Part shown: piece by piece, positions 28,847-47,514 of the stretch
Layout of the letters: each line of letters opens with the position of its first letter
How positions within the stretch are numbered: position 1 is the first letter of the stretch
Assembly (NCBI GenBank): GCA_963847445.1
Contig: CAWJZV010000024.1
Location: 64,001 to 128,000 of the forward strand
DNA: 64,000 nt
Reading direction: 5' to 3'
Source of the DNA: an uncultured delta proteobacterium
GTDB lineage: Bacteria > Desulfobacterota > Binatia > UBA9968
Translations under genes and position numbers: made by a program
The notes under the pieces: generated by a model
Told to the model about the DNA's origin: nothing
What the model saw: the letters and a program-made list of their open reading frames with translations, nothing else
Databases searched by the model: none

Positions 28847-28931
28847 TAGAAGAAATGAAATCGGCAGATTGGCGCAATGAACCTAGCGCGGCACAGCCGC
28901 AACCAAATGGGAAAGAGTTTTTACCACGAAG

Positions 28932-29118
28932 TGAATCATGATCTTACGCACGCCCACAGATAATGAAAATACCGGAAGCCATTCCTTAGACTCGTCATGC
29001 CGGCGCAGGCCGGCATCTAGGGGCGGGAAGGGGATGGATAACGGCCTGCGCCGGTATGACGGAACAGAGAGTCGTTATCGATGCGCAGATCATCGCTGCA
29101 CGTGTATTTTCGAAGGAG
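28932..29118 (+). mobile_element. Non-coding site-specific inserted element, copy A (187 bp)
   Basis: Begins TGAATCATGATCTTACGC right after CCACGAAG, ends GTATTTTCGAAGGAG right before CTCACGAAG; nearly identical to 41532-41710. Confidence 0.75.
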
Positions 29119-29347
29119 CTCACGAAGGACACGAAGGGTTCGGAGAATTATTTCTCCGAACTTCGTGCTCTTCGTGTTCTTCTTGGTGAGATGAATTTTT
29201 CCTATTGAGCGCGACTACTTACGGACACCGATCCGGAAAATTTGCGCAAGCTGCGCAAACTGTTAGGTATTGCAGTGCAGAGAACACAAAAAATGAATTC
29301 CGAAATTTAGGGACGGGATTAAAACCCGCCCTTTTCGGTTTGCGACG

Positions 29348-29479
29348 GTCAGGACCATTCTCGAAGGCATGGAGAAACTTCCTGGCGCCAAAGGCGCCGA
29401 TCCACGCGGTTTCGTCGACTTCACGATATTGGATGAGTTGGAGAAAGAAGGCTTCGTCAAAAATCTATACAAGAACTAA
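29348..29479 (+). pseudogene. 3' remnant of an NMT1/SsuA-like SBP gene
   Basis: VRTILEGMEKLPGAKGADPRGFVDFTILDELEKEGFVKNLYKN-stop, no start; abuts the REP at 29308-29332. Confidence 0.75.
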
Positions 29480-29573
29480 ATCTGCTTCGGTGGTCATTCC
29501 GAGGCGCAGCCGAGGTAGCTCGACCGCGAACTGCGACAAGCCAAGCCGCCTGGGCCAGTAAGGAGATAACATC

Positions 29574-30564
29574 ATGCGCAATTTTTTATATCGCGCGCCA
29601 TTCTCGCTCATCGCCGCGCTGCTGTGCGCCGGCTCTGCCTCTAGCCCAGACCATCAAAGTCCCCTACGTCTCGATCTCCGGCTTTCAAGCGCCGCTCTAT
29701 CTCGGCGAACGCGCCGGACTATTCAAGAAAAATCAGCTCGACGCCCAGTTGATCTACATGCCGGGCGGTTCGCTGATCGTGCAGACCTTGCTGTCCGGAG
29801 ATGTCGGCGTCGCCAGCCTCGCGCCGCCGTCCGCGGTAAGCGCCTGGGCCAAAGGCGCCGAGCTCGCCATCGTCGCCGGCGGCATCGAGCGGGTGCTGAA
29901 CGTGCTGATGGTCAATCCGAAAATAAAAAGAGTCGACGAACTCAAAGGCAAACGCGTGGCGATAAGCCGCTTTGGCTCGCTCTCAGATACCTCCCTGCGC
30001 GACGCGCTGGCCCACCACAAGCTCAAAACCCAGGATATTTCCATCGTCCAGATGGGCGGCCTGGGCGAACGCATGGTGGCGCTCACCTCCGGCATCGTCG
30101 ACGGCGCGGTGTTAAACGTCGACCAATTGTACCAAGCGGAGAAGCTGGGCTTTCACGTGCTCATCGACATGCGCAAGCTGCCGCTCAACTATTCGACCCA
30201 AGGCATCGTCGTCAGCCGCGAGTTTCTTCGCGTTCAGCGCGCCGTTGTCAAACGATTTTTAAGAGTTTATATCGAAGGCATCAAGATTTTTAAGACCGAT
30301 AAGGAATTTTCCATCGAAACTTTGGGCCGCTACATCAAGACCAACGACCGCGAAGTATTGGCCAAGACCTATGACTTCTACCGCGAGGCGTGGGAGAGCG
30401 TACCGACCGTCAGACGCGAAGGCATTCAGCAAGCGTTGGACAGCATCCCCGAAGGCAAGAATCCTAAGTTGAACCTCGATAGCCTGATCGACAATTCGCT
30501 GATCCAAGAACTGGACAAGGAAGATTTCCTGAAAGCGCTCTATCCCGAAGGGCTCAAGCGCTAA
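29574..30564 (+). CDS. NMT1/SsuA-like ABC substrate-binding protein (frameshift near 29640)
   Basis: Signal peptide from 29574; LKGKRVAISRFGSLSD, DNSLIQELDKEDF. Confidence 0.85.
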
Positions 30565-30655
30565 CGCGGCACTAGGCGCCACCTCAGCACCATTTGACAG
30601 CGCACCGCTGCAAACGTTAATTGAATCTGGCAGCTCATCCACAGAGGAGAAATCC

Positions 30656-31492
30656 ATGCTCAAAACCATCGGCTTGATCGAGGGTCACTATGAATGTCGT
30701 TCGCTGGATGAAACCCTGCCGGTGTTCACCGACCTGCTGGCCATGGAGATCGTCGAGCGCAAAGCGGGTCAAGCCACGATCAAACATCCCAACACCGATT
30801 GGCGCCTGATCGTCCACGAAGGCGGCCCCGGCGCGCCGGAGAAAACCTTCGACAACCACTACGGCTTTCGCGTCGCCACGCACACTGAGGTCGAAGCCGC
30901 ATGGGAATATGTCGAAGCGCACAAAGACAAGTATCGCATCAGCAAGATTACCAAACCGCAGAGCGCCCACTTCGCCTACTCGATTTATTTCCACGAGCCC
31001 GGCGGCAATCATTTGGAGATCGAATATTACAATCCCGGCGGCGCGCTGCACGGGCGCTCGCATACGGCGGGCCATTGGGACAACACTTTGAACAGCGAGC
31101 GATTCCCTGGCCGCGGCTACGTGCCGCAGGCTTTTACCCACGGCACGCTGCAGTGCGACGACATCGAGCGCAGCCGGCGTTTTTACGTCGAAGTGCTCGG
31201 GCTGGAAATCGCCGCCGGTTTCAATACCGCCCAATACATCAAACATCCAGCGACGCCGTGGTATCTCGTCGTCCTGCAACGCAGCCCGCGTCAATACTTG
31301 GCGCCGGTCAATCGTTTCACCTTGCAACTCGGCACGGCGGCGGAAGTCGAACAGGCGCACCGCGAGTTTGTGTCGAATAAGAAGTCGCTGGGCCTAAACG
31401 AAATCACCGACATAGACCGCGCCGACGGCACAGTCAATTTCATCTTCAGCGATCTCGACAAAAATTGGTGGGAACTCACAGCCAATGGTTAA
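30656..31492 (+). CDS. Two-domain VOC/glyoxalase-family protein
   Basis: NHYGFRV, SIYFHEPGGNHLEIE, HGTLQCDDIERSRRFYVEVLGLE, FSDLDKNWWE. Confidence 0.85.
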   Translation: MLKTIGLIEGHYECRSLDETLPVFTDLLAMEIVERKAGQATIKHPNTDWRLIVHEGGPGAPEKTFDNHYGFRVATHTEVEAAWEYVEAHKDKYRISKITKPQSAHFAYSIYFHEPGGNHLEIEYYNPGGALHGRSHTAGHWDNTLNSERFPGRGYVPQAFTHGTLQCDDIERSRRFYVEVLGLEIAAGFNTAQYIKHPATPWYLVVLQRSPRQYLAPVNRFTLQLGTAAEVEQAHREFVSNKKSLGLNEITDIDRADGTVNFIFSDLDKNWWELTANG

Positions 31493-32546
31493 CCCCATGA
31501 TGAAACTTGCACAGCTGACCTGTTGTCTATTGGTTGTCTGCGTCGCCGCCGGCGCACAAGCCCAAGCGCCGTTTTACGAAGGAAAAAATATCCTCTTAGT
31601 CAGCGGCACCGACGCCGGCGGCGCCGGCGACCTGCGCACGCGAGCGCTCCTCGCACCGCTGAAGAAACATATTCCCGGCCAGCCCAATATCGTCATGCAA
31701 TACATGCCCGGCGCCGGCGGCCGGAGAGCAGCCAATTATCTTTACAAGTCGGTGAAACCCGACGGCTTGACCATGGGTGCCATGATTACCGGCATGATTC
31801 AGGGCACGCTGTTCGGCGAAAGCGACGTGCTCTACGACATCGACAAGTTCATCTATCTCGGCTCCCACGCGCGCTACGCGCCCTACGGCTTCATCAGCCG
31901 CAAAGGCGCCGGTTTCACGACCAAGGAAAAACTCGCCGCCGCCACTGGAGTGCGCATCGGCGCTCCCTCCGTCGGTCACAGCCTGTACACCATGGCGCGG
32001 CTGTTCGCTTACATGTTCGAGCTAAAAGAGCCGCGCTTCGTCACCGGCTACACGCCGCGGGAGATCGACTTCGCCTTGGAGCGCAACGAGATCGACGCCC
32101 GAGTGAGCATCCTGGACAGCTTGCTGACGCGTAATGCCCATTGGCTCGATAAAGATATGGTGGACATTAACGCCACCATGGACATCCCCAAAGATATCAG
32201 TTTCAGCCATCCGCGGCTGGCTAAACTTATCGAGATCGAAGCCCTGGCTAGGTCTAATCAGGAACGCCGATTGATCGCCCTATTTCGCGGCGCGCGCGCC
32301 ACCGGCCAACCGTTTGTCCTCCCGCCCGCTACACCGCCTGACCGAGTAAAGATTTTACGCGAAGCCATGCGCAATGCCTTCGCCGACCCCGATTACGTCA
32401 AGAGCTACGAGAAACTCACCGCCGAGCCGGCCATGTCGATCGCCCCGGAAGAGTTCGAAAAACAGCTGCGCGAAATCCCCCGTGAACCGGAGATTATCGA
32501 TCTATTCAAAAAGCTATCCGGCCCGGGGCCGCTGCCGAAGCGCTAG
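31485..32546 (+). CDS. TctC-family substrate-binding protein
   Basis: AQAPFYEGK, GGAGD, QYMPGAGG, KPDGLT, GPLPKR. Confidence 0.9.
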   Translation: MVNPMMKLAQLTCCLLVVCVAAGAQAQAPFYEGKNILLVSGTDAGGAGDLRTRALLAPLKKHIPGQPNIVMQYMPGAGGRRAANYLYKSVKPDGLTMGAMITGMIQGTLFGESDVLYDIDKFIYLGSHARYAPYGFISRKGAGFTTKEKLAAATGVRIGAPSVGHSLYTMARLFAYMFELKEPRFVTGYTPREIDFALERNEIDARVSILDSLLTRNAHWLDKDMVDINATMDIPKDISFSHPRLAKLIEIEALARSNQERRLIALFRGARATGQPFVLPPATPPDRVKILREAMRNAFADPDYVKSYEKLTAEPAMSIAPEEFEKQLREIPREPEIIDLFKKLSGPGPLPKR

Positions 32547-32565
32547 CCGCTAACATCACATCGTT

Positions 32566-32849
32566 ACCCATAAGTTTCGGCTGGACACGGCGGGTGCGGG
32601 AGAGTCTACGAATTATCGTAAAGCACTCAAGCCGCGGCGGGTTTTCCGGTCCCCCTCTTTGGAAAAGAGGGGCTAGGGGAGATTTGTCGCGCCTACGCAG
32701 CTCCATTTATAGAACTGGAATGCCGCGCTGGTGCTAAAGAAACCGCCCCACGCCACAACCAAATCCCTCTCAATCCCCCTTTTCCAAAGGGGGAAGGGGT
32801 AACTATGAGGCCTCTGCTTCAACCCCCGTGTCCAGCCAACAAGTTGGGT
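32566..32849. mobile_element. MITE-like element with about 24-bp imperfect terminal inverted repeats and an internal REP-like pair
   Basis: ACCCA..GGCTGGACACGG / CCGTGTCCAGCC..TGGGT ends; internal hairpins CCCCTCTTTGGAAAAGAGGGG and CCCCCTTTTCCAAAGGGGG. Confidence 0.6.
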
Positions 32850-32879
32850 CCGCATGATCAGGGTAGTAGGCGAGATATC

Positions 32880-33194
32880 TCAAGGCAGCCGCAGTAACAG
32901 AATCCCAGCGACGACCAGCGCGACGCCGCCAAGCATTCGTGCATTGAGTTGCTCGGCGAATAGGAAGTAGCCAGCGATTACCGCGAGCAGCGCCTCAAGC
33001 CCGAGCACGACGACGTAACTCGATCCGAGCGCTTCCTGTTTCATCGCCCAGGCCTGGATCAGCGCGCCGGCGCCGAAGAGCGCGACCAGCGCCAGCGCCG
33101 GCAACCAGCGCGTCAGTCCGGCGGAATGTTTCATGAACACGCCGCCGGCGACGTACAAAGCCGCGGCGAGAGCATAGAGCGCCAGCGCTTTCAT
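32880..33194 (-). CDS. SMR/DMT-family small multidrug transporter
   Basis: 104 aa, 4 TM segments, MKHSAGLT, LGSSYVVVLGLE, LFAEQL; lacks the TM1 Glu of EmrE. Confidence 0.8.
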   Translation of the reverse strand: MKALALYALAAALYVAGGVFMKHSAGLTRWLPALALVALFGAGALIQAWAMKQEALGSSYVVVLGLEALLAVIAGYFLFAEQLNARMLGGVALVVAGILLLRLP

Positions 33195-33246
33195 TTGAGT
33201 TTGCCGTAAAGCGAAGAACTAAGTTCGTCTGGCTGGCAAGCTTGGC

Positions 33247-34866
33247 CTAGGCGCCGATCAACTTGAGTTTGTTCTTGGCGTTCTTGCCAATCTTGTTGCG
33301 CGGGAATTTCTCCGCGACATGTTCGAGCAGATCGATGCCCAAACCGCGTTCTTGGCCGGCCCGTTCGACCAGGCTGAAACCCAGGGCAAAAAGATCTTCC
33401 GGCGCCAGGCTTTTTTCTTTTCTCAAAGTTTCAAAAACCGGATAGGCGGAGCCGCGATAAAGACCGGTCAAGAGCTCCACGGCTGGATGTTGGCGATTGG
33501 TCGCCAGCGTGTGCGCATGCAGTTTCAACTGCGCCAGTGCCAACGCATAGCGATGCTCAGCTTTGAACTCGCTAAAATCTTTGAGCGGAGTCAAGAATCC
33601 CAGCGCTTCTTTGTATTTCTTGGTCTTAAGCAGTTTGACGCCCTGGTCCGCCAGCCGGTCGTAGACCAACGCCACATCGGCGCTTTTGAGGACATGCAGA
33701 AACGCCGTCTGAATCCGCTCTTCGCCGGCGATCGCTTGGTGCAACCGTTTCCACAGGCCGTCGAGCGTGTCTTGGCGCCACTTGCCTTCGAAGGACGGCA
33801 GCAGCTCGGCGATGCTCCACGCCTTGCTTGGATCTTGGCAAGCGGCGAGATCTTTGAGCAAAACATTTCGCGCTTCGGGAATCCTGCGCAGCGAACTCGC
33901 CGCCACGTCGCGCTTGCGATAGTCCGGATCGCCGAGCTCCTCGACTAAGGTGCGAATGCTCGCCGGCGTGGCGACGTCGCCCATTTTGCGCAGGGCGAAT
34001 TTTTGCAGATCCGAGTGCGGGCTTTGCATCAGTTTGGCCAAGAGCGAGCGGGAATCCTCGGGCAATTCATGGGCGTCGAGCAGATCGATGACCAGCCGCG
34101 TCACCTCGGAGTATTCGGCTTCTTCAAGTATCGGCAGCAGTTTGGCGTACTCGTCTTTGCGCAGCTCTTGCTCGCGCAGGCAACGGAGCAAGCCAACCAA
34201 AGCATGGGCGCGCACCGCCGGATGGTGCTCGGCGCCGATGTATTTGAAAAGCCAGCGGCGCGCTTGCGGCCGGCCCAGTTGGCCGAGCAGCCGCATGGTT
34301 GAAACCGCCGCCGGCCGTTGCTGTTTGACATCGAGCTTGGCCGCAAAGGCTTCGACTTCATCGTAGAAGCCATCGAGTTCCTTAGTCTCCATCTCGCGCA
34401 GCGCCGGCGTCATCAAGTCGCATATGACTTTGTTGGTCTCGTCCGTGCCGGCGCTGAGCATCTGCAGCAGCCCCTTCAGCGCCGCCTTACCGCGCACCGC
34501 GGCGAGCACTCGCGCACCGTTCAACTGCCAGGTCCGCGAAGCCTCCTTCGACTGCTGGACTAACAACGGCACCGCCGCTTGGCCGATGCCGGTGAGCGAA
34601 CGCACGGCGCGCTCCTGCATCTCTTTGTCACCGTCGTCGAGCATCTTGAGCAGTTGCGCGGTATTGCTCTTCGGCTGCACTTCTTCAAAATAGCGCAGCG
34701 CATAATCCTTGAGCACCGGATTGGCGCTGTCGAGCATGGTGCCGACAAGTTTTGCCGTCGCCGCGTTGCTGATTTTCAATGCACCCAACACGAGCAACGC
34801 CGCGCAGCGTTGCTCGACGGTGCCCTTTTCCACGAGGGCCAGAAGGTCTTGAAGCGTGTTGTCCAT
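33247..34866 (-). CDS. HEAT/ARM-repeat protein of unknown function
   Basis: Repeated helical units (EQRCAALLVLG, QERAVRSLTGIG, VRAHALVGL, KRDVAASSL); TPR-like C-terminus. Confidence 0.75.
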   Translation of the reverse strand: MDNTLQDLLALVEKGTVEQRCAALLVLGALKISNAATAKLVGTMLDSANPVLKDYALRYFEEVQPKSNTAQLLKMLDDGDKEMQERAVRSLTGIGQAAVPLLVQQSKEASRTWQLNGARVLAAVRGKAALKGLLQMLSAGTDETNKVICDLMTPALREMETKELDGFYDEVEAFAAKLDVKQQRPAAVSTMRLLGQLGRPQARRWLFKYIGAEHHPAVRAHALVGLLRCLREQELRKDEYAKLLPILEEAEYSEVTRLVIDLLDAHELPEDSRSLLAKLMQSPHSDLQKFALRKMGDVATPASIRTLVEELGDPDYRKRDVAASSLRRIPEARNVLLKDLAACQDPSKAWSIAELLPSFEGKWRQDTLDGLWKRLHQAIAGEERIQTAFLHVLKSADVALVYDRLADQGVKLLKTKKYKEALGFLTPLKDFSEFKAEHRYALALAQLKLHAHTLATNRQHPAVELLTGLYRGSAYPVFETLRKEKSLAPEDLFALGFSLVERAGQERGLGIDLLEHVAEKFPRNKIGKNAKNKLKLIGA

Positions 34867-34920
34867 ATGCTTATCTCAATCGTAAATCCACGGTAAAAGT
34901 CAAGGCGCGCCGCTGCGGCC

Positions 34921-34983
34921 GTTACGGGTTACGGGTTTCGAGTTTTGGGTTCAACTCGAAACCCATAACGCGAGACCCGAAAC
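34921..34983. repeat. 7-nt periodic GTTTCGA/TCGAAAC palindromic repeat
   Basis: GTTACGG GTTACGG GTTTCGA GTTTTGG ... CTCGAAA CCCATAA CGCGAGA CCCGAAA; same family at 43899-44118. Confidence 0.75.
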
Positions 34984-35046
34984 TTTTCGGATTGCTTGAC
35001 TCTGAAACAGATTGCCGATACGAACGGCGAAGTCCAAGGAGAACAT

Positions 35047-36205
35047 ATGTTTTATCCAGATCTTTCCCCGTTCGGCGTCGACATGGAGCGTTTGAAACGC
35101 GACCGTTTAACCCGGCTGCAAGGCGAGATGAAGCGGCAAGGCCTCGGCGCGCTCTTGCTGACCGATTTTTTGAATATCCGCTATGCGACCAATACCGTCA
35201 TGATGTTGGGCCTGCGCGCCACCGGCATTCAACGCTTCGCCCTGATCCCCGTCGCGGGCGAGCCGATCGTCTGCCAGCGCGAGCTGTCGCGCAAGAGCGA
35301 CTATCGCAGCGCGCGCTTCGATGCCTACATGTTCGCCATGCGCCCGCCCGTCGCCACCGAAGACTTTGTCGATCAGGCGATCGCCGGCCTGAAGGAACTG
35401 GGCGTTGCCGGCGAGCCTGTCGGCGTCGATTATCTGAACTTGACGGCGATAGACGGATTGAAAGCCAAAGGCGTGAACCTGGTCGACGGCTGCCAGGCCG
35501 TGCACCAGGCGCGCGTCGTCAAGACAGTCGATGAATTGCAACTGATCCGCTGGACGACCCAAGCCAAGGCCAAGGGGTACGATCTGGTGCGCGGCGCGCT
35601 GCGTAAAGCCGATCCGCCGGAAGATCAGTTGAGCCGCATCATGCTCGATTATTTAATGGATCAAGGCTTCGAAGCCGGCAGCGAATTTATTTCAATCTAC
35701 GATTCCTCGACCATCGACTCGCGGCCGCACAACGAGCCGATGGGCGCCGATCTGGTGGTCAAAGAAGGCGATCTTAGTCATCTGCGACGCCACCGTCGCC
35801 GGCCCCGGCGGCTACTACAGCGACTTCTGCCGCACCTTTAGCCGCGGCGCGCCGACGGCCGAAACTAAACAGCGCTACAAAGAAGCCTATGGTTCGCTGC
35901 AGCAAGCGATCCAGTTCGTCCGCCCAGGCTCCTGCGCCGAGGCGTTCAAATCCTTCGGCAAAGGCGCCAGCGCCCGCCTGCCCGGCTTCGACGGCTTTCA
36001 CGGCGTCGGTTTGTGTATTTATGAATCGCCCTGGCTGCGCGGCGGCGATCCGGAAAAGTACATGATCTCGCTGGAAGAAAACATGATCGTCGCCTGCGAG
36101 ATCAACCACTACCCGGTCAAGCTCGAACATCTGATGCGAGTGACCAAAGACGGCGGCGAGATCCTGTCAGAGTATCCGGTCGACCCGGAACTGGTTCCGG
36201 CCTAA
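35047..36205 (+). CDS. M24 (Xaa-Pro aminopeptidase/creatinase-like) peptidase (frameshift near 35775)
   Basis: NIRYAT N-domain, ARVVKTVDEL; second frame CDAT...GGYYSDFCRT, HGVGLCIYESP, CEINH...LEH supplies the D,D,H,E,E ligands. Confidence 0.85.
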
Positions 36206-36214
36206 GAAAGATTT

Positions 36215-36385
36215 GCCGCAAAGAACGCAAAGTTCGCAAAAAAGAAGGGGCGCAGCATGCTGCGCCGCTAAGAATCCGATGTTCCTTTTTGCGCCCATTT
36301 GCGCTCTTTGCGGTTAATCGAATCCGCATTCGCGAATCCTCTTGCTGCGCTTTCACTTCGTGACCTTTGTGCTCTTTGTGGTTAA
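36215..36385. repeat. CGCAAAG/CTTTGCG-family composite repeat
   Basis: CCGCAAAGAACGCAAAGTTCGCAAA, hairpin GGCGCAGCATGCTGCGCC, CTTTGCGG, and CTTCGTG-type units. Confidence 0.7.
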
Positions 36386-36394
36386 ATCATCCGA

Positions 36395-37236
36395 TCAATC
36401 GAAGAACGCCAGCGTGCGCATCTCGATACTCTCGCGCGCCGGCGCGATTGACCGGGACTGTTGGGATCGTCGAACGCGGCATGGGCGGACCAGCGCGCGC
36501 GGCCGTCTTTCATCGAATCGTAGCACTTGAAGACGATCGCTTCGTCAGTCTGCATGTTGGGAAAGTAGAACCAGCGATGGTTGGGATTGTGGGTGAGATG
36601 ATAGATCTCGCCGACGCGGTCTGGATAGCGCCTTTCGGTGCCGATCAAATCTTTAGCGGCGATGCTTTGCGAATCGGCGATCGCCAGCGGCGCGGAAACC
36701 ACCGGGTTACGCACCGGCCGCCACACTTGAATCACGCTGAAACGTTTTTGCATCAACGCCTCAGCTTCTTCCTGCGGCAATAGATCGCGCACCCGCTGCG
36801 GCCCCGACCATTCCGTATAGTCGTTGTGCACGCTGCGCACCGGCCGGCTGGCGAATTTTTCTTCGCGCACTGCGTCATTCTCCGCGCGCAGCGTATGATC
36901 GAAAACCAAGACCCGCGCCGCCCCGGTCGCCCGCTTTACCAGTTGTTCGATCTCCGGATAGTAAACCCGCTTCACTTCGTCGTCGTTGTAGAAATCCTTC
37001 ATCTTGGTTTCATGTTTGACCAAGAGGAAGCCTTCCTTGTCGAGGGAGAATCCACTCGCCAGCCGGCCGTTGCGGATCGTCACCGCATGCGCCTGGTAGT
37101 TTCCGGTATTGCTGGTGACCCGCACTGCGCCCGGCAAGTTGGACTCGGTCACCGGTTTCTCACCGCCTGGAATGATGTAATTCAACGTCGATTGCACCGA
37201 CTCTATTTGTGAATTCTGTTCACCGGCCTGCAACAT
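36395..37236 (-). CDS. CmcJ/NvfI-family oxidoreductase (frameshift near 36450)
   Basis: FSLDKEGF, YYPEIEQLVK, VFDHTLR, VHNDYT, VWRP, PLAIAD, HRWFYFPNM, HAAF, RESIEMR. Confidence 0.85.
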
Positions 37237-37272
37237 GAGAGACCTCCGTCGATTACTGTTGGTTCTGACGCC

Positions 37273-37306
37273 TTGAACGTTTTGAACTATTTGAACGGTT
37301 TGAACG
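37273..37306. repeat. TTGAAC x4 half-element
   Basis: 9-nt periodic TTGAAC. Confidence 0.7.
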
Positions 37307-37318
37307 AGTCCATCCCAA

Positions 37319-38374: not shown

Positions 38375-38638
38375 GGCTGTCCCACAACCTCCGGTTAGCT
38401 GAAAAGTGCTTGAACCTACCGCAAATCAGCACTTCGTACAAATCAACTTTCCGGATTGCGGCGCGGGAAAATCAGGGGGGCCGTGAATTCCCCCAGGTCG
38501 TTTCCGTCTAATCCGTATGAGCTATTGTGCGGTTGAGAATCGACCGGTCATCGTATAAGCGAAGAAGCTGACATTGCGACGCCCGGACGCAGGCAACATC
38601 GATTTGCGGTCCAAAACAATACTGTCACGGAGGCGCCT

Positions 38639-38974
38639 ATGAATAAAATGAGTTATGCAGCCGTTGTCATTCTGAGCCTGCTGATCATCGGCTGTGGCTC
38701 CAGTAACAATGGGGCTTTCGCCGCGCGCAGCGGGCGAGAAGCGCAACAAAATGAACGGGCGGCGATCGTGGAGCGTTTGATTCCCGAGGAAGGTGCGCTG
38801 CCGGAAAATCGCTTGAAGGACGTGCTCGCTGCGATTTCCACGGTCGACAAGGCGTTCGAGATGGAGAATCCCACGCGGGAAAGAGTCCGCCGTCACCTGC
38901 TAGACCGAGAAGTTACGACGCTGCGTCGCATCGAGACAAACGTCCGAGCCATCGAAAGGAAACGCAGGGACTAG
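38639..38974 (+). CDS. Hypothetical lipoprotein
   Basis: GGAGG RBS; MNKMSYAAVVILSLLIIG-C lipobox; helical body. Confidence 0.6.
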   Translation: MNKMSYAAVVILSLLIIGCGSSNNGAFAARSGREAQQNERAAIVERLIPEEGALPENRLKDVLAAISTVDKAFEMENPTRERVRRHLLDREVTTLRRIETNVRAIERKRRD

Positions 38975-39077
38975 ACTTACGCGAATTTTACATGCCGCGC
39001 CCCGCATTGTCATATTCAGCGCTCTGCCGGGTCGTTGACAATGCACGCTAACCGTTCGCGAGAGCAACGCCGGCTGC

Positions 39078-41314
39078 TTATTGTTGTTGGACTCGCAACG
39101 CGCGATAAATCGTCTCGGCACTTACCGGCAGATTAAACAGCCGCACGCCAACCGCGTCGGCGATCGCGTTGGCGATGGCCGCCGGCGGCGCGTTGTTGGC
39201 GAACTCGCCGATGGGCTTGGCGTTGTGCGGGCCGACGCCGCCGCCGGAGGTGACTAGAACGGTTTTCAACTCGAACAGATCGGCGATGGACGGCAATTTG
39301 TAATCGCCGAGATTATTGTTGGTCACTTTGCCTTGATCGATGACGATCTCTTCCATGAGTCCCTGGCCGACGCCCATCACCGCCGCGCCGTCGATCTGCC
39401 CCTGATGCGTCAACGGATTGATGATCGTGCCGACATCGTGGGCGGTGACGAAGCGATGGAGTTTCACCGCGCCGGTCTCGGGATCGACTTCGACCTCGGC
39501 GACCTGTGCGCAGATGTACGAAAACTCGTCGGGTGCGCGATAGTCTTCATAGACGGTAACGAGCAGCGGTTCCGCCGTTTGAGCGACAACCCGGCGCAGC
39601 AATACTTGTTGGCCCCGGATCTTGGCGCAGCGAAAACTTGCCGCCGTCGAAGTCGATGTCTTCGGCGCGGCATTCCAACATGCGCGCGGCTTGGGCGAGT
39701 AATTTTTCGCGCAGCTCGTCGCAGGCTTTGATCATGGCATTGCCGGCGACGTAAGTCATGCGGCTGGCGCGCATGCCGCCGTCACGCGGCGCCGTGTCGG
39801 TGTCGCCGATGACAACACGCACATGGTCAATGCCGATTTTCATCCGATCGGCGACCAACTGGCGCAAGATCGTGTGCGTGCCCGAGCCTTGATCGATGCT
39901 CGGGCTGACGATTAAGTAGCCGCCGTCCGCTTCGGCGCTGAGAATCACGCCGGTGTCGCCGCCGCTGATATGGCGGCCCGAAAGCGCGATGCCGCGCCCA
40001 TGATTGGCTTTCTTCGGTTTCTTCCAACCGGCGGCGTCCAGTGCGCCTTGGAGCACTTCACGAAAGCGCACGTCTTTCAACTCTTGACCGACCGCGTCGG
40101 CTTCTCCGTCGCTAAGAAAGTTCTTCAGGCGAAACTCAGCGGCATCTATAGCCAGTTCTTTGGCGATGATGTCGGTGTGGCAGTCCACCGCGAATGCCGT
40201 CGCCACCGCGCCGGGACTGCGGTAGTAACCGCCAGGGACGGTGTTGGTATAGATCTGCATGAACTCAATGTCGGCGTGCTCGATGCTGATACTGGCCCCC
40301 GGCATAGTGCCAGGTCGCCAACGACGTATTGGACTTGAGCGCGCCGTATCCGCCGCTGGCATGGACGGCGCGCATTTGCCGCGCGACCAGCCGGCCGTCG
40401 CGCATTACCCCGCTCTTGATCGTGATCACCGTCGGATGCGCCGGATTGCTCGCCGACAGCTCTTCGGCGTAGGTCATGATGAACTTCACCGGCCGCCCGG
40501 TTTTCTGCGCAAGAAAATAAAGGATCGGCAAGTCGACACCGTCACCCTTGCCACCGAACTCGCCGCCGACGTTGACCACGTTCATGCGGATGCGCTCTTC
40601 GGCCAAACCCAGGCATTTGGATAACTGGCTGCGCACTCCGAAGGGATTTTTCACTCCGGCCCAAACTTGCACGCGGCCGTCCGGCTCAATCGCAACGGTC
40701 GCCGCGTGCGGTTCGAGGTAGCCTTGATGGCGCGCCGGTACATTGAAAGTGTGTTCGAATACCAGATCGGCGTCGCGGAAGCCTTGCTCGACATCGCCTT
40801 TCTTCCACGCTAATCGCGTGAGACCGTTGCGCAGGTCGGCGGCGAGAATATTCTTCGGCGCGCCATCGTACTCGGCGACATTGTCATGGAGCTGCGGCGC
40901 GTCCGGCGCCATCGCTTGCAGCGGATCGAACACCGCGGCAAGAATTTCGTAATCGACGTCGATCAATTGAATGGCTTCCTCGGCGGCATCCACGGTCTCC
41001 GCCGCCACCGCCGCCACCCGGTCGCCGATGAAACGCACTTTGTCCCAGCACAGCACCGGCAAGTCGCGAATCTGCTTGCCGATAAGCAGCCCGCGCACAT
41101 CCGCGCCGGTGATAATCGCCTTCACCCCGGCAACTTTCTCCGCCTTGCTGGTATCGACGCGGACAATCCGCGCGTGCGGATGCGGACTGCGCAAGATTTT
41201 CGCCCACAGCAGCCCTGGCAGCTTCACATCGGCGGCATAGATCGACTGGCCGCTGACCTTGTCGCCCGCCTCCGCCCTCGGCACCGACGCCCCAATCGCT
41301 TTGAATTCAGCCAT
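39078..41314 (-). CDS. Xanthine dehydrogenase/CoxL-family molybdopterin-binding subunit (frameshifts near 40290 and 39605)
   Basis: LRSPHPHARI, YLEPH, VGGEFGGKG, DQGSGTHT, GDTD, AEVEVDPETG, DVGTIINP, GQIDG, KPIGE. Confidence 0.9.
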
Positions 41315-41531
41315 GGTGTTAGTTTCCTTAATCTATTTTTGCCAGCGCCGCTGGATAGTTAATCAACCTTCAGGGTAATTAGTACGCCAGAGCACCCAAG
41401 GTCAAGGTTGGATGGCAACAATGATGCGAAAGAAGACTTTGTATCTCAGATAAATTGCCAGAACATGAAGCGGTTGGACGCGAACTGGTGAGATTTATCG
41501 ATTGGATGAAAAATCCAATTTCACCACGAAG

Positions 41532-41710
41532 TGAATCATGATCTTACGCACGCCCACAGATAATGTAAAGTACCGGAAGCCATTCCTTAGACTCGTCATG
41601 CCGGCGCAGGCCGGCATCCAGCGGAAGGGATATACCGGCCTGCGCCGGTATGACGGAACAGAGAGTCGTATCGATGCCCAGTCATCGCTGCACGTGTATT
41701 TTCTAAGGAG
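41532..41710 (+). mobile_element. Non-coding site-specific inserted element, copy B (179 bp)
   Basis: Same ends and target as copy A: CACCACGAAG|TGAATC...GTATTTTCTAAGGAG|ATCACGAA. Confidence 0.75.
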
Positions 41711-41856
41711 ATCACGAAAGCCACGAGACTGAAGAGGACGGGTTTCAAACCCGCCCCTACAATTCCAGAATCTTATTTTGCGCCCTTTGCGGTTAAATAC
41801 TCCGGTTCTGAATGACTTCCTTGGTTACGGCTCAACTGAACTTTGCCATTAGTGCA

Positions 41857-42958
41857 TCACAGCCCATACAACGCCTTGGCATTGTCGCTGAGGATTTTCT
41901 GTTTCACTTCCGCTGACAGATCGGTGCGCTCTTTGAAAATTTTAATCGCGTCGACATCGCTCGAGGTATCCATGTGGCCGTAGTCGGTGCCGATGACCAG
42001 ACAGTCCGCGCCGCCGTTCTCGACCAGATAGGGCAAGTCGTCGGAGTTTTCACAGGTGACAAACATGCCGTAGTCGCGCGCGATGTTCTCCGACCAGGGC
42101 CGGTCCAAAGTCTCGAAAACGGTTCTTGGCTTCGTGCAGCACCCAGGGCAGCCACTGCGCGCTGGCTTCGATAAAACCCCAGCGTAGTTTGGGAAATAGT
42201 TGATGGACGTCGCTGAGCATCACATCGCTGAACGCCGCCACCGTCGGCACGCGGAAGCGATGCAACCCCGCCGCCTGCGACACCGGATGGCGATAGAGAT
42301 CGTTGAGCCAAGTGTTGCCGTTGGCGATATGCACCGCGATGGGAATGTCGAGCTTCTGCGCTTCGTCGTAAATCGGATAGAAGTACGGATCGGCGAGCAA
42401 GCGGCTGCCTTCGATGGGCCGCATTAAAACGGCGCAGGCGCCATGCTGCTTGGACCAGCGGATTTGGTCCAACGCGTCCGGCATGCTCAAGATCGGCGGC
42501 ATGCACGACCATAAGAGACGCCCCTTGCCATGTTCCCAGATATCGGCCAGCCATCGGTTCCAGCTTTTGCACAGCGCCACTTCCACCGCGGCCCGTTCGG
42601 TCACGCCCTCGATGAACATGGTGTTGTGCAGCACTTCGACATCGACGCCGGTCTGATCCATATGTTCCAAACGCATGTCGACATTGCCCATCTCGCGCGA
42701 CGCATCCATGTCGGCGAACTTGCGTCCCGCCTGTTTGGCGCGTTGTTCCAGCGCCTCAGGGGAGAAAGCCGGGAATCGCAAACCACGCACCTTGCCATCG
42801 ACGAGCCAAAACTGCTGCTTCACGCCGCCCTTCTCAGCGGTCTGCAACGGTGTCGGCCGGTACTGCCGCTCCGACGGATCCATGAACTCCCAAGTCCGCT
42901 CGCACTCGACAACATGCGCGTCCGCATCGATCACAATCGCCTGTCCATTGGTCGTCAT
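41857..42958 (-). CDS. Amidohydrolase_2-family protein (frameshift near 42110)
   Basis: IDADAHVVE, MDQTGVDVEVL, WNRWLAD, FPKLRWGFIEA, GTDYGHMD, ILSDNAKALYGL; paralog of 27808. Confidence 0.88.
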
Positions 42959-43048
42959 GTTTAAATCTCCTCTTCGGCCCGAGACTATTTGATCGTGCTG
43001 CATCCTGTCAATATTGCGGAGCGCGAGGAGTTTATTTTCACCACGAAG

Positions 43049-43256
43049 TGTCCATAACTTACGCTCGTCTACAGAATATGAAAATGGATGGACTCCCTCC
43101 ATAGGCGGTCTGCTTGAACGCGTCGTTCCCGCGCACGCGGGAATCCAGGTTTGGTCTGCGCCCAATTGGCCTGGATTCCCGCTTTCGCGGGTATGACGGA
43201 ACCCAGGTGACCTCTTCGTTGTGCAGACCCTCTCCTTGCACGTATTTTCTAAGGAG
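43049..43256 (+). mobile_element. Non-coding site-specific inserted element, copy C (208 bp)
   Basis: CACCACGAAG|TGTCCATAACTTACGCTCGTCTACAGAATATGAAAAT...GTATTTTCTAAGGAG. Confidence 0.72.
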
Positions 43257-43293
43257 GTTTCGTAGGGTGTGTTTCGCGTTCCAGGTTGCAAAG

Positions 43294-43319
43294 AGGGCGG
43301 GTTTCAAACCCGCCCCTAC
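43294..43319. repeat. GTAG-type REP palindrome GGGCGGGTTTCAAACCCGCCCCTAC
   Basis: Further copies at 19686, 29308, 41735, 45039, 45934 and 60741. Confidence 0.85.
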
Positions 43320-43442
43320 ATTTCGGAATTCTTTTTGCGTTCTTTGCGGCCAAACTCCAGATCCAATCCACGTCCTTCGTGGTGAAAGAGTCCGACCCAT
43401 CTCAGCCTCGACCGTCTAATTCAGTTCTGCTAGTCTCGCGTC

Positions 43443-43888
43443 ATGAATCTGGCAAGACAATCTTCTGACCACCACCGATGAGATCCGCGATCTAATCAAT
43501 ACAAACCAAACGGATCGCCGTCCTCGGCATCAAGACCGACGCTCAAGCCGACCAGCCGTCGGTGTACGTGCCGCAGTACATGCAACGCGCCGGCTTCGAG
43601 ATCATCCCAGTGCCGGTGTATTACCCGGACGCTACGAAAATCTTAGGTGAGACGGTTTATCGCCAGCTAACCGCCATCCCTGGCGACATCGACATGGTCG
43701 ACGTCTTCCGCCGCCCCAACGACATCGCCGGTCACATCGAAGACATCTTGGCGAAGCGACCCAAGTCCGTCTGGTTTCAATCCGGCATCCGCAACGACAA
43801 GGCGGCGGAGATATTCGCCAAGGCGGGGCTAAAAGTAGTCCAAGACCGCTGACTGATGGTCGACCACCGGCGGTTCGCCGGGAATTGA
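43443..43888 (+). CDS. YccU-like CoA-binding protein (CoA_binding_2), candidate selenoprotein (TGA 43850-43852); N-terminal indels near 43449 and 43501
   Basis: KRIAVLGIK...PSVYVPQYMQRAGFEIIPV, IDMVDVFRR, VWFQSGIRN, AGLKVVQDR-TGA-LMVDHRRFAGN-stop; family consensus is VVxDRCxxVEH. Confidence 0.82.
43867..43881 (+). promoter_or_regulatory. Candidate SECIS element of the CoA-binding protein gene
   Basis: 6-bp all-GC stem CCGGCG/CGCCGG with GTT loop; loop begins after 20 nt following the UGA. Confidence 0.65.
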
Positions 43889-43898
43889 GATCGTTTGG

Positions 43899-44118
43899 GG
43901 TTACGAGTTTCGGGTTTCGAGTTTTCGGACTGCCGCGGCGAATTCAGGCTGCTCGATATTTTGCGAATCTAGCAACTAACGATCCGTCATACCGGCGCAG
44001 GCCGGCATCCATCCCCTTTTTCCTCTTAGATTCCGGCCTGCGCCGGAATGACAGAAAACGGGGCGATTTGAACTGGGCTGACGGCTTCCACTGAACTCGA
44101 AACCCGAAACTCGAAACG
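43899..44118. repeat. 7-nt periodic palindrome enclosing a GTCATACCGGCGCAGGCCGG...CCGGCCTGCGCCGGAATGAC pair
   Basis: GTTACGA GTTTCGG GTTTCGA ... CTCGAAA CCCGAAA CTCGAAA; inner pair at 43987-44052. Confidence 0.8.
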
Positions 44119-44142
44119 CCGAATCGCGCGCAATGCGTACGC

Positions 44143-45006
44143 TCACGCCGCCAACTTTTTCGCCCGCAGTTGCTTGGCGATAAAATTCTTTACCATCTCA
44201 TGAGCCCGATCCGTCATCGGCCCCGGATCGTCAATCCACAGATGTTCGCAACCCGCGAATAATTCATACTGACAGTCGCCGCCCGCGGCGCGATAGGCGT
44301 TGGCGAATTTCTCCTGCACCGCCGGCCGCACGTTGTCGTCCAGCTCCCCTTGCATGATCAGCAGCGGCGGCAACGTGACTTTTTCGCCGCGGTCGAGAAT
44401 CTCCTGCGGATTGGCTTCGTGGATCGTTTCCCAGGGATTAAAATAGTTCTTGCTGTGCTGCATCATCTCGGCTCGCCCCAGCGACTCGGCATTCAAGTAC
44501 CGCGCATAGGGATTGCTCACCGGCGAGCGCGTCGCGACGTAGTTGACTCTGGCATCGAGGTTCGGCGCTGCGGCGAGCTTAAGCGCATTGTAGCGCGGGT
44601 CGTCCGGCCGCATCGCCAACAGCTCGACTTCATGGCCGCCGCTCGAACTGCCCAGCACACCGATCGTCGCAGCATCGCCGTTCCATTCCTGCGCTTTAGA
44701 TTTCAGCCAGCGCACGCCGTAGTTGGCATCCTGCACCGACGCCGGATAGGGCGCCTCGGACGCGCGAGTCAGGTCGATGGCGACGACGAGAATTCCGCTC
44801 CGCGCCAAACTCTCGTCCATGCTCGAGTTGGCAGTCCGGTCCTTGTTGTTCCACGCCCCGCCATGAAGATCGAGCAACACCGGAAACGGCCCCGCCCCCT
44901 GCGGCTGGTAAACCCGCGCCATCAACATCCGCGCCGCCGCCTTGCGAAACTCGACATCCCAACTCTTGATCTCGAACTTGTCCGAAGGATTGTATGCGGT
45001 CGCCAT
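44143..45006 (-). CDS. Alpha/beta-hydrolase (HSL-like esterase)
   Basis: LHGGAW oxyanion motif, YPASVQD, GSSSGGH nucleophile elbow, QGELDD, H in GCEH. Confidence 0.88.
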   Translation of the reverse strand: MATAYNPSDKFEIKSWDVEFRKAAARMLMARVYQPQGAGPFPVLLDLHGGAWNNKDRTANSSMDESLARSGILVVAIDLTRASEAPYPASVQDANYGVRWLKSKAQEWNGDAATIGVLGSSSGGHEVELLAMRPDDPRYNALKLAAAPNLDARVNYVATRSPVSNPYARYLNAESLGRAEMMQHSKNYFNPWETIHEANPQEILDRGEKVTLPPLLIMQGELDDNVRPAVQEKFANAYRAAGGDCQYELFAGCEHLWIDDPGPMTDRAHEMVKNFIAKQLRAKKLAA

Positions 45007-45163
45007 TTTTACGCCCTCCCTTACTATTGAAGCTATGAGAGCGGGTTTCAAACCCGCCCCTCCTGTAAATTATTTTTTGTGCCCTTTGCGTTTCCGATCG
45101 TCCTGAGCACCGTCGAAGGATGCGGCAAATCATCCGAATCCAAAACTTGTGGTTAACACTCTT

Positions 45164-45733
45164 TTACGGCATCGCCGGCGCTTCGCCGACTTGCCAAATA
45201 TACAACGTGCGCGAATCGGCATAGTCCGCGGTGCCATCGCTCGGCGGGGCGAGATGCTCGACGCGCGTCGGTTTCCAGTCGTCGATGTCGAAATCATGGG
45301 CGACCACGCGCGAACCGGGTTTGAGCTTTTGCAGCTTCGGCCGGAGCGCGTTGTTGAACCATTTGAACATGTACAGCGTCACCACCGTCGCTTCGGAGAT
45401 ATCGACGGTGAGTCCGTCCTGGGCGCGAAACTCGACCAGGTGGCTCACGCCTTCGCTCAGGGCGTTTTCCTTCGCCTTGGCGACCAGCTCGGGATTGAGA
45501 TCGATGCCGACGCCGCGGATACCGAACTTCTTCGCCGCTTCGATGACGATACGGCCGTCGCCGCTGCCCATGTCGTAAAGGATGTCGCCCTTCTTGATCT
45601 CGGCGACCTCGATCATCTTATGCACCACATACATCGGCGAGGGAACGTAAGGGATTGAATCTTGCGCCAGACTCACCTGGCGCATCAGCAGCACCAGTCC
45701 AAAAACCACCAACAGCTTAGCAACATTTCCCAT
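45164..45733 (-). CDS. Class I SAM-dependent methyltransferase with signal peptide
   Basis: PYVPSP, LYDMGSGDGRIVI, GIDLNPELV, ATVVTLYM, LKPGSRVVAHDF. Confidence 0.88.
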   Translation of the reverse strand: MGNVAKLLVVFGLVLLMRQVSLAQDSIPYVPSPMYVVHKMIEVAEIKKGDILYDMGSGDGRIVIEAAKKFGIRGVGIDLNPELVAKAKENALSEGVSHLVEFRAQDGLTVDISEATVVTLYMFKWFNNALRPKLQKLKPGSRVVAHDFDIDDWKPTRVEHLAPPSDGTADYADSRTLYIWQVGEAPAMP

Positions 45734-45842
45734 GATGGAGATCCTCCGCTAAAGCATTGAGCGTCGGCATCATATGCCGAGCACCACGATGGTTGTCAAT
45801 GGCAAATTGAACCGGCTGCGTCGCGCCAGGCACAAATCCATC

Positions 45843-45994
45843 TCACCACGAAGCCCATAGCGCGGCGAAGCCGCAACCGAAAAGAAGAATGGCCGCAAAG
45901 AACGCAAAGCGCGCAAAAAAAGAATCGGAAATCGTAGGGGCGGGTTTGAAACCCGCCCTCTTGGCTTCGTGATCTTCGTGTCCTTCGTGGTGAA
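45843..45994. repeat. Nested CACGAAG / TAGCGCGGC..GCCGCAACC / CGCAAAG / REP composite
   Basis: TCACCACGAAG ... CTTCGTGGTGAA ends enclosing three other repeat types. Confidence 0.8.
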
Positions 45995-46111
45995 AGCAAC
46001 TTTTCTATGTAATCGCGGATCGGCCGCGATATCCGCGATTTTTCGGGCTGGGCAAACTCTTTCGGCTGTGGTAGTAGCGGGGACTGACTGAAACAAATAG
46101 GAGCTAAGCCT

Positions 46112-47132
46112 ATGACCGGCAAACGAACATGGCTATTGGCTGCGGTACTCGTTGGAATATTCTTTTCCCGGCGCTACGGCTCGCGCCGCGGTGCCGACGC
46201 CGATGCTCGCCGCCTACGGCGGCCATAACGAAACCATGATCCCGATCTGGGTCGGGGCGGATAAGGGACTGTTCCGCAAGTACGGCGTCGATCTGCGCGC
46301 GCTACAGACCCGCAGCGGGCCGATCATGATGGCGACCCTCGCCTCCGGCGGCACGCCGCTCGTCTGGTCGGCGCCGAGCAGCGCGCTGAGCACCACGGCG
46401 AGCGGGCTCAAGCTCGGCTGCTTCGCCGTCGGCAACAACCAGGTGCCGCGGGAAGTCATCGTCAGAAAAGGCATCGAGTCGATCGAAGACCTGCGCGGCA
46501 AAAGCTTTGGCGTGCAGAGCATCGGCGGCGGCTTTTGGATCTCGACCATGGTGGTGCTCGACGCCCTGGGCATCGATCCGGACAAATACAAACTCAACAT
46601 GCGCGTCATCGGCGATACCGCCACCGTCACCCAAGCGCTGATCACCGGCAACGTCGACGCCATGGTCGTCCCCTATAGCTACGGCGATGTCGCCAAGCGC
46701 GCCGGCGCCAAGGCCCTGGCCGATGCCGGCAAGTTGAACGTCACCTATCAAGCCACCGTCATGTGCGCCCAGAAAGATTCCAGCGCGGTATCGAACGACA
46801 CCATGATCGCCATGACCAAGGGCATCGTCGATGCGCTGGCCTACATTCTCGAACCCGCCAACAAGCGCGAGGTCAGCGAGGTGCTCAAGAAAAACCTGCG
46901 CTTGAGCAAGGACGAAGATGTCGACGGGTCTTATCGAGTGTCGCGCTTGCAGATGCCCAACCTCGACATCGCGCCGAACCTGGAAGCCTGGCGCACGGTG
47001 AAACGGCTGGTCGCCAAAGTGAATCCCAAAGTCCAGGACGTCGACATAGAACAAGTGATCGTCACCGGCCCGGCGCAATTTTTGGAAACAAGCGGCTTCA
47101 TGGCGGAGATGCGGAAGAGACTGCCACGATGA
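46112..47132 (+). CDS. NMT1/SsuA-like ABC substrate-binding protein (frameshift in signal region near 46165)
   Basis: PIWVGADKGLFRKYGVD, DLRGKSFGVQSIGG, ALITGNVDA; AGGAG RBS before ATG 46112. Confidence 0.85.
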
Positions 47133-47219
47133 CGAGATTCTGTTCACCACGAAGGCACGAAGATCACGAAGGTAAGAGAAGACAGGAGATTTGTTTTCCG
47201 AACTTCGTGTACTTCGTGC

Positions 47220-47427
47220 CTCCTTCGAAAATACATGTGAGGGGATGATATGCACAACAAAGAGCCTGCGGGGCTCCGTCATACCCGCGAAAGCGGGTAT
47301 CCAGGCTAATTCGGCGCAGAACAAACCTGGATTCCCGCGTGTGCGGGAATGACGAATTGAGCGGGATCATGTTCTGGGAATACCAACCATTTTCATGTTC
47401 TGTAGACGAGCGTAAGCTCATGGAGCA
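47220..47427 (-). mobile_element. Non-coding site-specific inserted element, copy D (208 bp, inverted)
   Basis: CTTCGTGC|CTCCTTCGAAAATAC...ATTTTCATGTTCTGTAGACGAGCGTAAGCTCATGGAGCA|CTTCGTGGTG; reverse complement resembles copy C. Confidence 0.75.
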
Positions 47428-47514
47428 CTTCGTGGTGCAAAGCCGATAATCAACCTTGAACTTTTGAACTTTAAACATTGAACCGCGCTCATAGCGCACA
47501 GAAGGAGCCCCACC

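Follow-up and report, generated by a model that had tools for sequence, protein, structure and literature searches.

Short repeats in heptamer palindromes of an uncultured Binatia genome as probable non-autonomous derivatives of an IS110-family element

How does a short, gene-less repeat come to sit, copy after copy, at one dinucleotide of the same kind of host palindrome? The question is raised by a stretch of 64,000 nucleotides from an uncultured delta proteobacterium of the Binatia (assembly GCA_963847445.1, contig CAWJZV010000024.1, here G000:C24:64001-128000), which we refer to as the window and which contains four such copies in palindromes built from CACGAAG heptamers. The assembly under study (G000) comprises 7.19 Mb in 48 contigs, has 57% GC and is 91.8% complete. 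We consider it very probable that the repeats are a non-autonomous derivative of an IS110-family insertion sequence (IS), resembling a MITE (miniature inverted-repeat transposable element), which was inserted at the first CACGAAG unit of the palindrome and moved in trans by a bridge recombinase and its RNA. An autonomous element in related genomes has the same ends and the same target, encodes both IS110 recombinase domains and carries guide-like left-end segments, of which the target-matching one covaries with the target; the short copies are free of these segments, and filled and empty alleles differ precisely.

The copies lie at 28932-29118 (copy A, 187 nt), 41532-41710 (copy B, 179 nt) and 43049-43256 (copy C, 208 nt) on the forward strand and at 47220-47427 (copy D, 208 nt) on the reverse strand, and they align along their entire length. 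Each starts with TG immediately 3' of CCACGAAG and terminates in AAGGAG, and in copies A, B and D the right flank consists of one or two nucleotides followed by CACGAA. The interior is of the GTCATGCCGGCG-hairpin type in A and B and of the GTCATTCCCGCG-hairpin type in C and D. Copies A and B have a subterminal inverted repeat (GAAAATAC at 28965, GTATTTTC at 29104), which in C and D is reduced to GAAAAT/ATTTTC.

The left target unit of the palindrome that hosts copy A (TACCACGAAG) is read at 28922-28931 on the forward strand, and the remainder of the palindrome, with CACGAAG units, loop and CTTCGTG units, follows the element at 29119-29188. At a paralogous site, G000:C4:58756, this sequence is found with no element in it: the flanks are identical and the difference is exactly TG...GGAG, so that only AG is ambiguous at the junctions. 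Copy D sits inverted in the right arm of its palindrome. The left arm with an empty target (CACCACGAAG-GCACGAAG, the hyphen marking the insertion point here and below), the loop and the inner right arm up to copy D occupy 47145-47219, and the outer right-arm unit (CTTCGTGGTG, the reverse complement of CACCACGAAG) flanks the start of copy D at 47428-47437 on the reverse strand. Further empty targets are found at 19645-19671 on the forward strand (CACCACGAAG-GCACGAAGGACACGAAG) and at 45965-45992 on the reverse strand (CTTCGTGATCTTCGTGTC-CT-TCGTGGTG). The window contains 29 instances of the heptamer CACGAAG; shuffled sequence has 9.9±3.2, and none of 100 shuffles gets as high as 29. The initial annotation, made from the letters of the window, had described four copies at these positions with a degenerate right flank in copy C, empty targets CACCACGAAG-GCACGAAG at 19645 and 47145, AG as the only sequence common to both junctions, subterminal repeats without terminal ones, and two interior subfamilies (A/B and C/D) with common ends. 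All of this holds: the targets are real, the AG is borne out by the empty paralogue of copy A, and the subfamilies by the alignment and by copies elsewhere in the genome.

A motif search recovered 50 full copies in the genome, 159-267 nt in length, with conserved ends (TG..CTTACGCWCGYCYACAGA and GTATTTTCKAAGGAG) and a variable interior. The left flank is an exact CACGAAG in 43 of them, has one mismatch in 5 and lacks CACGAAG in 2; TG starts 46 copies and GGAG terminates 44. On the other side, a CACGAAG-like unit follows within 0-3 nt in 37/50 copies and the first base 3' of the element is G in 34/50. Exact CACCACGAAG sites number 303 in the genome, with the element following at 62, and most of the remaining ones belong to intact, empty palindromes in which a loop separates three CACGAAG units from three CTTCGTG units. 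Palindromes of this kind, similar to repetitive extragenic palindromic (REP) sequences and bacterial interspersed mosaic elements (BIMEs), are seen in the window at 19645-19745, 29119-29188, 45965-45992 and 47145-47219 as well as throughout the genome, where CACGAAG occurs 1724 times compared with roughly 940 expected from base composition.

Hairpins of the GTCATTCCCGCG type fill 32 of the 50 interiors and those of the GTCATGCCGGCG type another 16, the remaining 2 containing unrelated sequence. Left, middle and right parts are recombined among the subfamilies, and some copies contain nested inserts. Nearest-neighbour identity ranges from 72.5 to 98.4%, the upper value being that of copy A, and is ≥96% in 10 copies. 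Pairing left with right ends across the genome gave nothing above 263 nt. The two features by which MITEs are classically recognised, terminal inverted repeats and a target-site duplication of the DDE type, are absent, and we use the label "MITE-like" because the ends are TG...CATGA and ...AAGGAG with only a 6-8 bp subterminal repeat, GAAAAT(AC)/(GT)ATTTTC.

Where could the enzyme come from? In a genome of the same genus (G009), a blast match to the left end (positions 6-41) lies directly upstream of a match to the IS110 family. The locus (G009:C456) runs from host TTTTCACCACGAAG into TGTGTCATGAGCTTACGCTCGTCCACAGAAGATGAAAATGG..., continues with ~245 nt without an open reading frame (ORF) and an ORF of 421 amino acids, and ends in ...AAATTTTCGAAGGAG against host GACACGAAGAGCACGAAGG. 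The encoded protein matches DEDD_Tnp_IS110 (PF01548, 1.3e-32) and Transposase_20 (PF02371, 2.7e-18) and is similar to the structure of the IS621 transposase (8wt6, E 4.5e-11), its GLDVH, MESTG, KTDMKDA and HESAG aligning with GIDTA, IEATG, KTDTVDA and YESGS of IS621. By this alignment, the catalytic residues named in the available text of PMC11208158 would be placed in these four stretches. In same-genus and same-family genomes the autonomous element is 1537-1555 bp long and has the left end, right end and insertion point of the short copies; the GAAAAT.../...ATTTTC subterminal repeat is present too, in both of its subfamilies.

When 90 genomes of the family were searched at the protein level, 9 contained the element at E ≤ 1e-40, G000 not being among them. 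We examined twelve autonomous-element loci from 8 genomes and 6 genera, one of them in the unpublished G005, on which no conclusion rests. Nine of the twelve are full length (1537-1552 bp) with a ...TTTTC(G/T/A)AAGGAG terminus, and the other three have suffered truncation or deletion. At 11/12 loci the element is preceded by CACGAAG or one of its close variants (CACAGAG, TACGGAG), and likewise at the twelfth, G054, where the cut had been placed one base off. A scan with a 25-nt left-end pattern, using one genome per species, returned 93 stretches, of which 80 were read; they represent 80 unique sites, and the right end was located at 53. The distance between the ends was 141-297 nt at 48 of these, 513 and 580 nt at two and 1552-1555 nt at three. 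Recombinase matches were present in five scanned loci (partial or frameshifted in two), and short copies outnumber autonomous ones roughly 15:1 in the genomes scanned. Two arrangements were seen along the way: an autonomous copy with a short copy directly behind it (G054:C779, L075) and, in G000 (C18:8986-9354), a head-to-tail tandem of two short copies joined as ...AAGGAG-TGCTTCATGAG.... Public records that hold the element are mostly labelled as Candidatus Binatia or Deltaproteobacteria metagenome-assembled genomes. One full autonomous copy (L168) lies on a 587-kb contig labelled "uncultured Actinomycetes bacterium", and single matches occur in records labelled Chloroflexota, Acidobacteria, Nitrospira and Verrucomicrobiia; such out-of-lineage records could reflect horizontal transfer, mis-binning or mislabelling.

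The initial annotation had proposed a non-autonomous, sequence-targeted element mobilised either by an IS110-like recombinase or by an HUH enzyme, and the recombinase-bearing element of the relatives, with its identical ends and target, supports the first of these. The long ORF-carrying copy that it had asked for exists in the relatives, with the DEDD_Tnp_IS110 domain; the G000 assembly contains a truncated relic only. An HUH single-strand transposase (TnpA of the IS200/IS605 type, or a REP-associated tyrosine transposase, RAYT), inserting the element 3' of CACGAAG without duplication, would fit the lack of terminal inverted repeats, the fixed word that always precedes the insertion and the hairpin-rich interior, and G000 has four Y1_Tnp matches, including two intact genes for proteins of 275 and 307 amino acids. 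None of these matches has element ends, however, and they do not lie in CACGAAG arrays: no CACGAAG was found within the 7-kb stretches searched around the two intact genes, and a single one lies near each of the two weaker matches. All long elements found to share these ends and this target code for a recombinase of the IS110 family. Moreover, no similar hairpin is conserved at both ends on one strand, a GAGC-TTAC-GCTC hairpin being lost in copies of type A, as read by eye. We therefore regard an HUH enzyme as an extremely remote candidate. The intact Y1_Tnp genes, IS200-like with long C-terminal extensions, are located at C2:49258-50181 (307 amino acids) and C7:137856-138683 (275 amino acids). 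Group I/II introns, IS91/Helitron-like elements, IS607 serine recombinases and IS630-type TA elements, which the junction sequences had brought to mind, were set aside once the IS110 partner had been found.

What do the short copies retain of the autonomous element? When the 1537-bp form was blasted against G000, only its first 41-52 nt matched, in short copies, and its interior matched nothing. The right end common to the two forms is ATTTTC(G/T)AAGGAG, at least 13 nt, with weak similarity further in. They also have in common the insertion site CACGA-AG-N and the 2-nt core, with no further duplication. None of the 50 short copies contains an internal CACGAAG or CGAAGGAG, the words that, as described below, make up the putative guides. 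Lacking a recombinase as well as guides, the short copies would have to rely on factors supplied in trans for their movement. In the mechanism we propose, a helper element of 1.54-1.55 kb would encode the DEDD/serine "bridge" recombinase, and guides in the RNA from its ~245-nt left end would match the target, namely the leading CACGAAG unit of a REP-like palindrome, as well as the joined ends of the element. The short copies would keep the parts of the donor site alone, ~41 nt on the left and at least 13 nt on the right, with unrelated and exchangeable hairpin DNA in between. Such a copy would be excised as a circle, its joined ends would be recognised as donor by the recombinase and bridge RNA supplied in trans, and insertion would take place at the AG core (CT on the other strand) of CACCACGA-AG-N. 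We infer the circular intermediate and the mobilisation in trans from these sequence comparisons. According to the available text of three reports on bridge recombinases, a 22-bp donor is sufficient for IS621 if the bridge RNA is provided in trans (PMC11208160), and excision either employs the same complex (PMC13626964) or relies mainly on recognition of the donor arms (bioRxiv 10.64898/2026.08.31.748434).

Has the element moved as a unit of its own? An 8-kb query around copies B-D, compared with five relatives, shows synteny. Site D is empty in four related species (G004, G035, G036 and G014), which have the same palindrome, ...CTTCGTGC-CT-TCGTGGTG..., where G000 has ...CTTCGTGC-CT-element-CT-TCGTGGTG..., so that the alleles differ by the element and one CT. 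At site B, the sister species G035 has an empty left arm (CACCACGAAG-GCACGAGG...) and a different copy, inverted, in the right arm. The syntenic match of G004 continues through the position of site C, and a left-end motif is present there; this insertion accordingly looks old. At the locus of copy A the entire repeat complex is missing from G004 and G035, and no clean empty site can be read. Among public sequencing runs, 20 share no more than half of the sampled words, every one of them in the form of contigs, and no RNA run turned up. In four of the 20 the contigs break at the repeats; where a joint leaves out 187-188 nt, its sides are 18-42 nt long (under 30 nt for those that leave out 187 nt) and it agrees with a paralogous empty palindrome.

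The same comparison bears on the idea that the element is immobile by itself, a module of a REP/BIME-like composite that spreads by recombination or gene conversion together with the palindrome. The intergenic regions are indeed mosaics of repeat modules that are turned over wholesale between species, and recombination between subfamilies has exchanged left, interior and right parts of the element. However, the element plus one CT is precisely what separates the filled allele from the intact empty palindromes of four species, the same palindrome carries different copies in different arms and orientations in two sister species, and the boundaries are identical to the base (TG start in 46/50 copies, GGAG end in 44/50). 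Passive spread with the palindrome is thus highly unlikely in our estimation. Filled against empty orthologous loci had been put forward in the initial annotation as one of the comparisons to make, and it turned out in favour of mobility, with D empty in four species and B differently occupied; neither variable junctions and targets nor a lack of empty orthologous alleles, which it had named as the contrary signs, was observed.

It can also be asked whether the copies have been adopted by the host as a structured small RNA or a regulatory element, which would be compatible with a mobile origin. Whole copies fold far better than shuffled sequences (z -4.7 and -5.7), the right end carries AAGGAG, and the copies sit between genes. 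Against such a role, the interior is replaceable by unrelated sequence with only the ends conserved, and neither a sigma-70-like promoter or terminator nor an Rfam match was found for copy A, whose 83-amino-acid ORF has no family match. A host function of this kind is, in our judgement, highly improbable, about as much so as spread with the palindrome. The related notion that the conserved ~41-nt left end is a promoter was dropped, no sigma-70-like site having been found in copy A and one weak outward-facing site in the G009 locus.

Returning to mobilisation by an IS110-type bridge recombinase, we asked what the left end of the autonomous element might encode. The bridge RNA of IS621, according to the available text of PMC11208160 and PMC11208158, originates from the left end and has two loops, each with a 5' guide that has the same sequence as the top strand on the left of the core and through the core itself, and a 3' guide that is the complement of the top strand starting at the core and running to the right, and that is followed by two "handshake" bases. 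We aligned eight left ends of the autonomous element. In the first subfamily, inserted at CACGAAG and followed by TG, the RNA would read CACGAAG+UG at position ~115 and CGAAGGAG at ~170-185. The copy in G060, inserted at CCACAGAG, has CACAGAG+UG at ~115 and CGAAGGAG at ~170-185, its own right end being CAAAGGAG. Two copies in G051 make up a second subfamily (51% amino acid identity), inserted at CGCGCAAAG (CGCAAAG-TA) and continuing with TAATTCATG; these have GCAAAG+UA at ~115 and CAUAAGAG at ~170-185, and their right end GTATTTTCATAAGAG is followed by (A/G)CGCAAAG. The segment at ~115 thus corresponds to the left target, AG and the first two bases of the element, and that at ~170-185 to the right end plus AG, with each subfamily matching its own right end. 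In the second subfamily, UUUGCGUCU at position 81 additionally matches AG+ACGCAAA in reverse complement (9/9), which is the right target in one of the copies. The weight of the guide reading comes from the same positions changing with the target in three states, and we infer on this sequence evidence that the left-end transcript probably acts as a bridge RNA.

On the strand that is sense for the recombinase the shared dinucleotide is AG, with CT on the other strand, and the sense-identical guide segments lie 3' of the predicted hairpins; with an AG core on the sense strand and guides 3' of the hairpins, the geometry looks mirrored relative to IS621. The simplest reading of this mirror would be that, with respect to the core, the genes occupy the other strand, the conserved CT being kept, in which case CACGAAG+UG would represent the right-target guide plus handshake bases.

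Several results weigh against the mechanism or against its guide component. Single guide matches are only modestly better than those in shuffled sequence (0-98 of 1000 shuffles reach them), and single left ends fold no better than shuffles (z -0.62, -0.29 and +0.14). Covariance folding of the left-end RNA, suggested in the initial annotation, was run with RNAalifold and showed compensatory changes in 4/70 pairs only. The putative target loop of the first subfamily has a 5' strand (GUAAGUGANU) that does not correspond to the right target, and a search for a guide matching the left-end half of the donor found none. Rfam contains no matching family, the window giving nothing at the gathering score and the autonomous element chance-level matches only. 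As to the helper, tblastn (E ≤ 1e-3) found no recombinase of the autonomous lineage in the G000 assembly, which holds only the truncated left-end relic at C24:185459-185556, outside the window: about 125 nt, located 3' of ACCACAGAG and cut off just before the target guide. The copy-rich relatives G014 (41 left-end motifs), G003 (12) and G004 (7) are likewise without the autonomous element at E ≤ 1e-40. With no helper found in the G000 assembly or in these relatives, present-day activity would be conjectural. In G000 the helper is either unassembled, the assembly being 91.8% complete, or lost; if lost, the copies would be recent fossils, given that some are 98% alike.

Apparent candidates for a longer copy were rejected. 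The only IS110 match of G000 (on C15) is a different, truncated IS110 element, and an apparent IS3-type ORF runs into it. A 2.5-kb "long copy" in G018 (L016, G018:C33:77500-82500) is a short copy interrupted by an IS3-type element with two ORFs and an IS30-type element, names that come from reading ORF translations and not from a family search. Left-end motifs without a nearby right end, at 15 sites in G014 and in 4 stretches of G003 and G015, yielded no gene-carrying copy: right ends, where found, are 126-546 nt away, and one chance motif lies in unrelated G015 sequence.

The guide results leave room for a more specific and tentative proposal, which in its entirety we think less likely to be right than wrong. 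It combines a bridge RNA of mirrored geometry relative to IS621, with an AG core and a long target guide whose 2-nt handshake-like extension lies 3' of the hairpin; guide matching of only one target half in the main subfamily; and recognition of the left-end donor half through the ~41 conserved nt and the GAAAAT/ATTTTC subterminal repeat, not through a short guide. If true, this would be a natural "half-match" bridge system that has spawned a family with arbitrary cargo, ~15 miniatures per autonomous copy.

IS110-family elements that target REP sequences are well known. Like the IS621/IS110 group, with IS621 of E. coli and ISPpu9 and ISPpu10 of Pseudomonas putida, the autonomous relative combines the two recombinase domains with an extended non-coding left end and a right end that is short. 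It also resembles IS621, so far as the available text of PMC11208160 and PMC11208158 describes it, in its fixed insertion into REP-like palindromes, a 2-nt core without other duplication and left-end segments that match target and donor. It differs from IS621 in that the protein similarity is remote (E 4.5e-11) and, it appears, in the arrangement of core and guides, IS621 having CT on the sense strand with sense-identical guides 5' and the present element AG with guides 3' of the hairpins; the elements of the window, moreover, have no recombinase and no guides at all. A MITE-like element tied to an IS110-family member has already been published: MITEPpu9, associated with ISPpu9, contains the small RNA gene ssr9 and has 8 copies, 5 of them directly downstream of the transposase gene, according to the available text of PMC12288879, and other reports of IS110-derived MITE-like elements may exist. 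In contrast to MITEPpu9, the present family numbers at least 50 copies per genome; these are dispersed, their hairpin interiors are exchangeable, and no autonomous one was found in the assembly. The family is set apart by its larger size, its dispersal, the interchangeable interiors and its occurrence in an uncultured soil lineage. Classical bacterial MITEs such as Correia elements are similarly short, non-coding, high in copy number, intergenic and folded into long hairpins, whereas the element described here has no terminal inverted repeats or staggered-cut duplication and inserts strictly sequence-specifically. Palindrome-associated elements of the IS200/IS605 group and REP/RAYT systems likewise have no terminal inverted repeats, a fixed word and REP-like palindromes, but the autonomous partner here is not of the Y1/HUH type, and the host palindrome is the target and not the mobile unit. 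The mirrored guide order and the unmatched guides might be the only parts that go beyond known ground.

If the repeats were indeed mobilised as we suggest, they would provide a natural, high-copy example of gene-less DNA moved by an externally supplied, RNA-guided bridge recombinase. The conserved ~41 nt and at least 13 nt would then mark the natural donor requirements in this lineage, one side being longer than the 22 bp that suffice for IS621. A pair of related elements, one naturally targeted to palindromes of CACGAAG heptamers and the other to those of CGCAAAG heptamers, would be suited to tests of the guide rules, and the element would explain much of the intergenic repeat mosaic of an uncultured lineage.

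Within the window the copies occupy intergenic positions, and the neighbouring genes encode proteins with amidohydrolase, NMT1-like, molybdopterin-binding and thiamine pyrophosphate (TPP)-enzyme domains. The 83-amino-acid ORF mentioned above (28938-29189) spans copy A and the adjoining palindrome and is most likely spurious.

Other repeats contribute to the same intergenic regions. The hairpin pair that fills the short copies (GTCATTCCCGCG... and GTCATGCCGGCG...) is also found free-standing, for example at 43983-44052 of the window (C24:107983-108052). Exact words of the interior hairpins occur 68 times (GTCATTCCCGCG) and 61 times (GTCATGCCGGCG) in the genome, 26 and 19 of these inside the 50 copies, and another family of the order has the pair as well; possibly it is a small repeat in its own right, nested within the elements. 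Repeat modules adjoin the target unit at 28880-28921 and 45853-45925 (CTAGCGCGGCACAGCCGCAACCAAATGGGAAAGAGTTTT, and arrays of CGCAAAG heptamers), and CGCAAAG heptamers are the insertion target of the second IS110 subfamily in G051. Finally, a G+C-rich hairpin, GGGCGGGTTT(C/G/A)AAACCCGCCC, stands beside the palindromes at 19687-19710, 41735-41760, 43297-43320 and 45938-45958, and represents either another repeat family or terminator-like stems.

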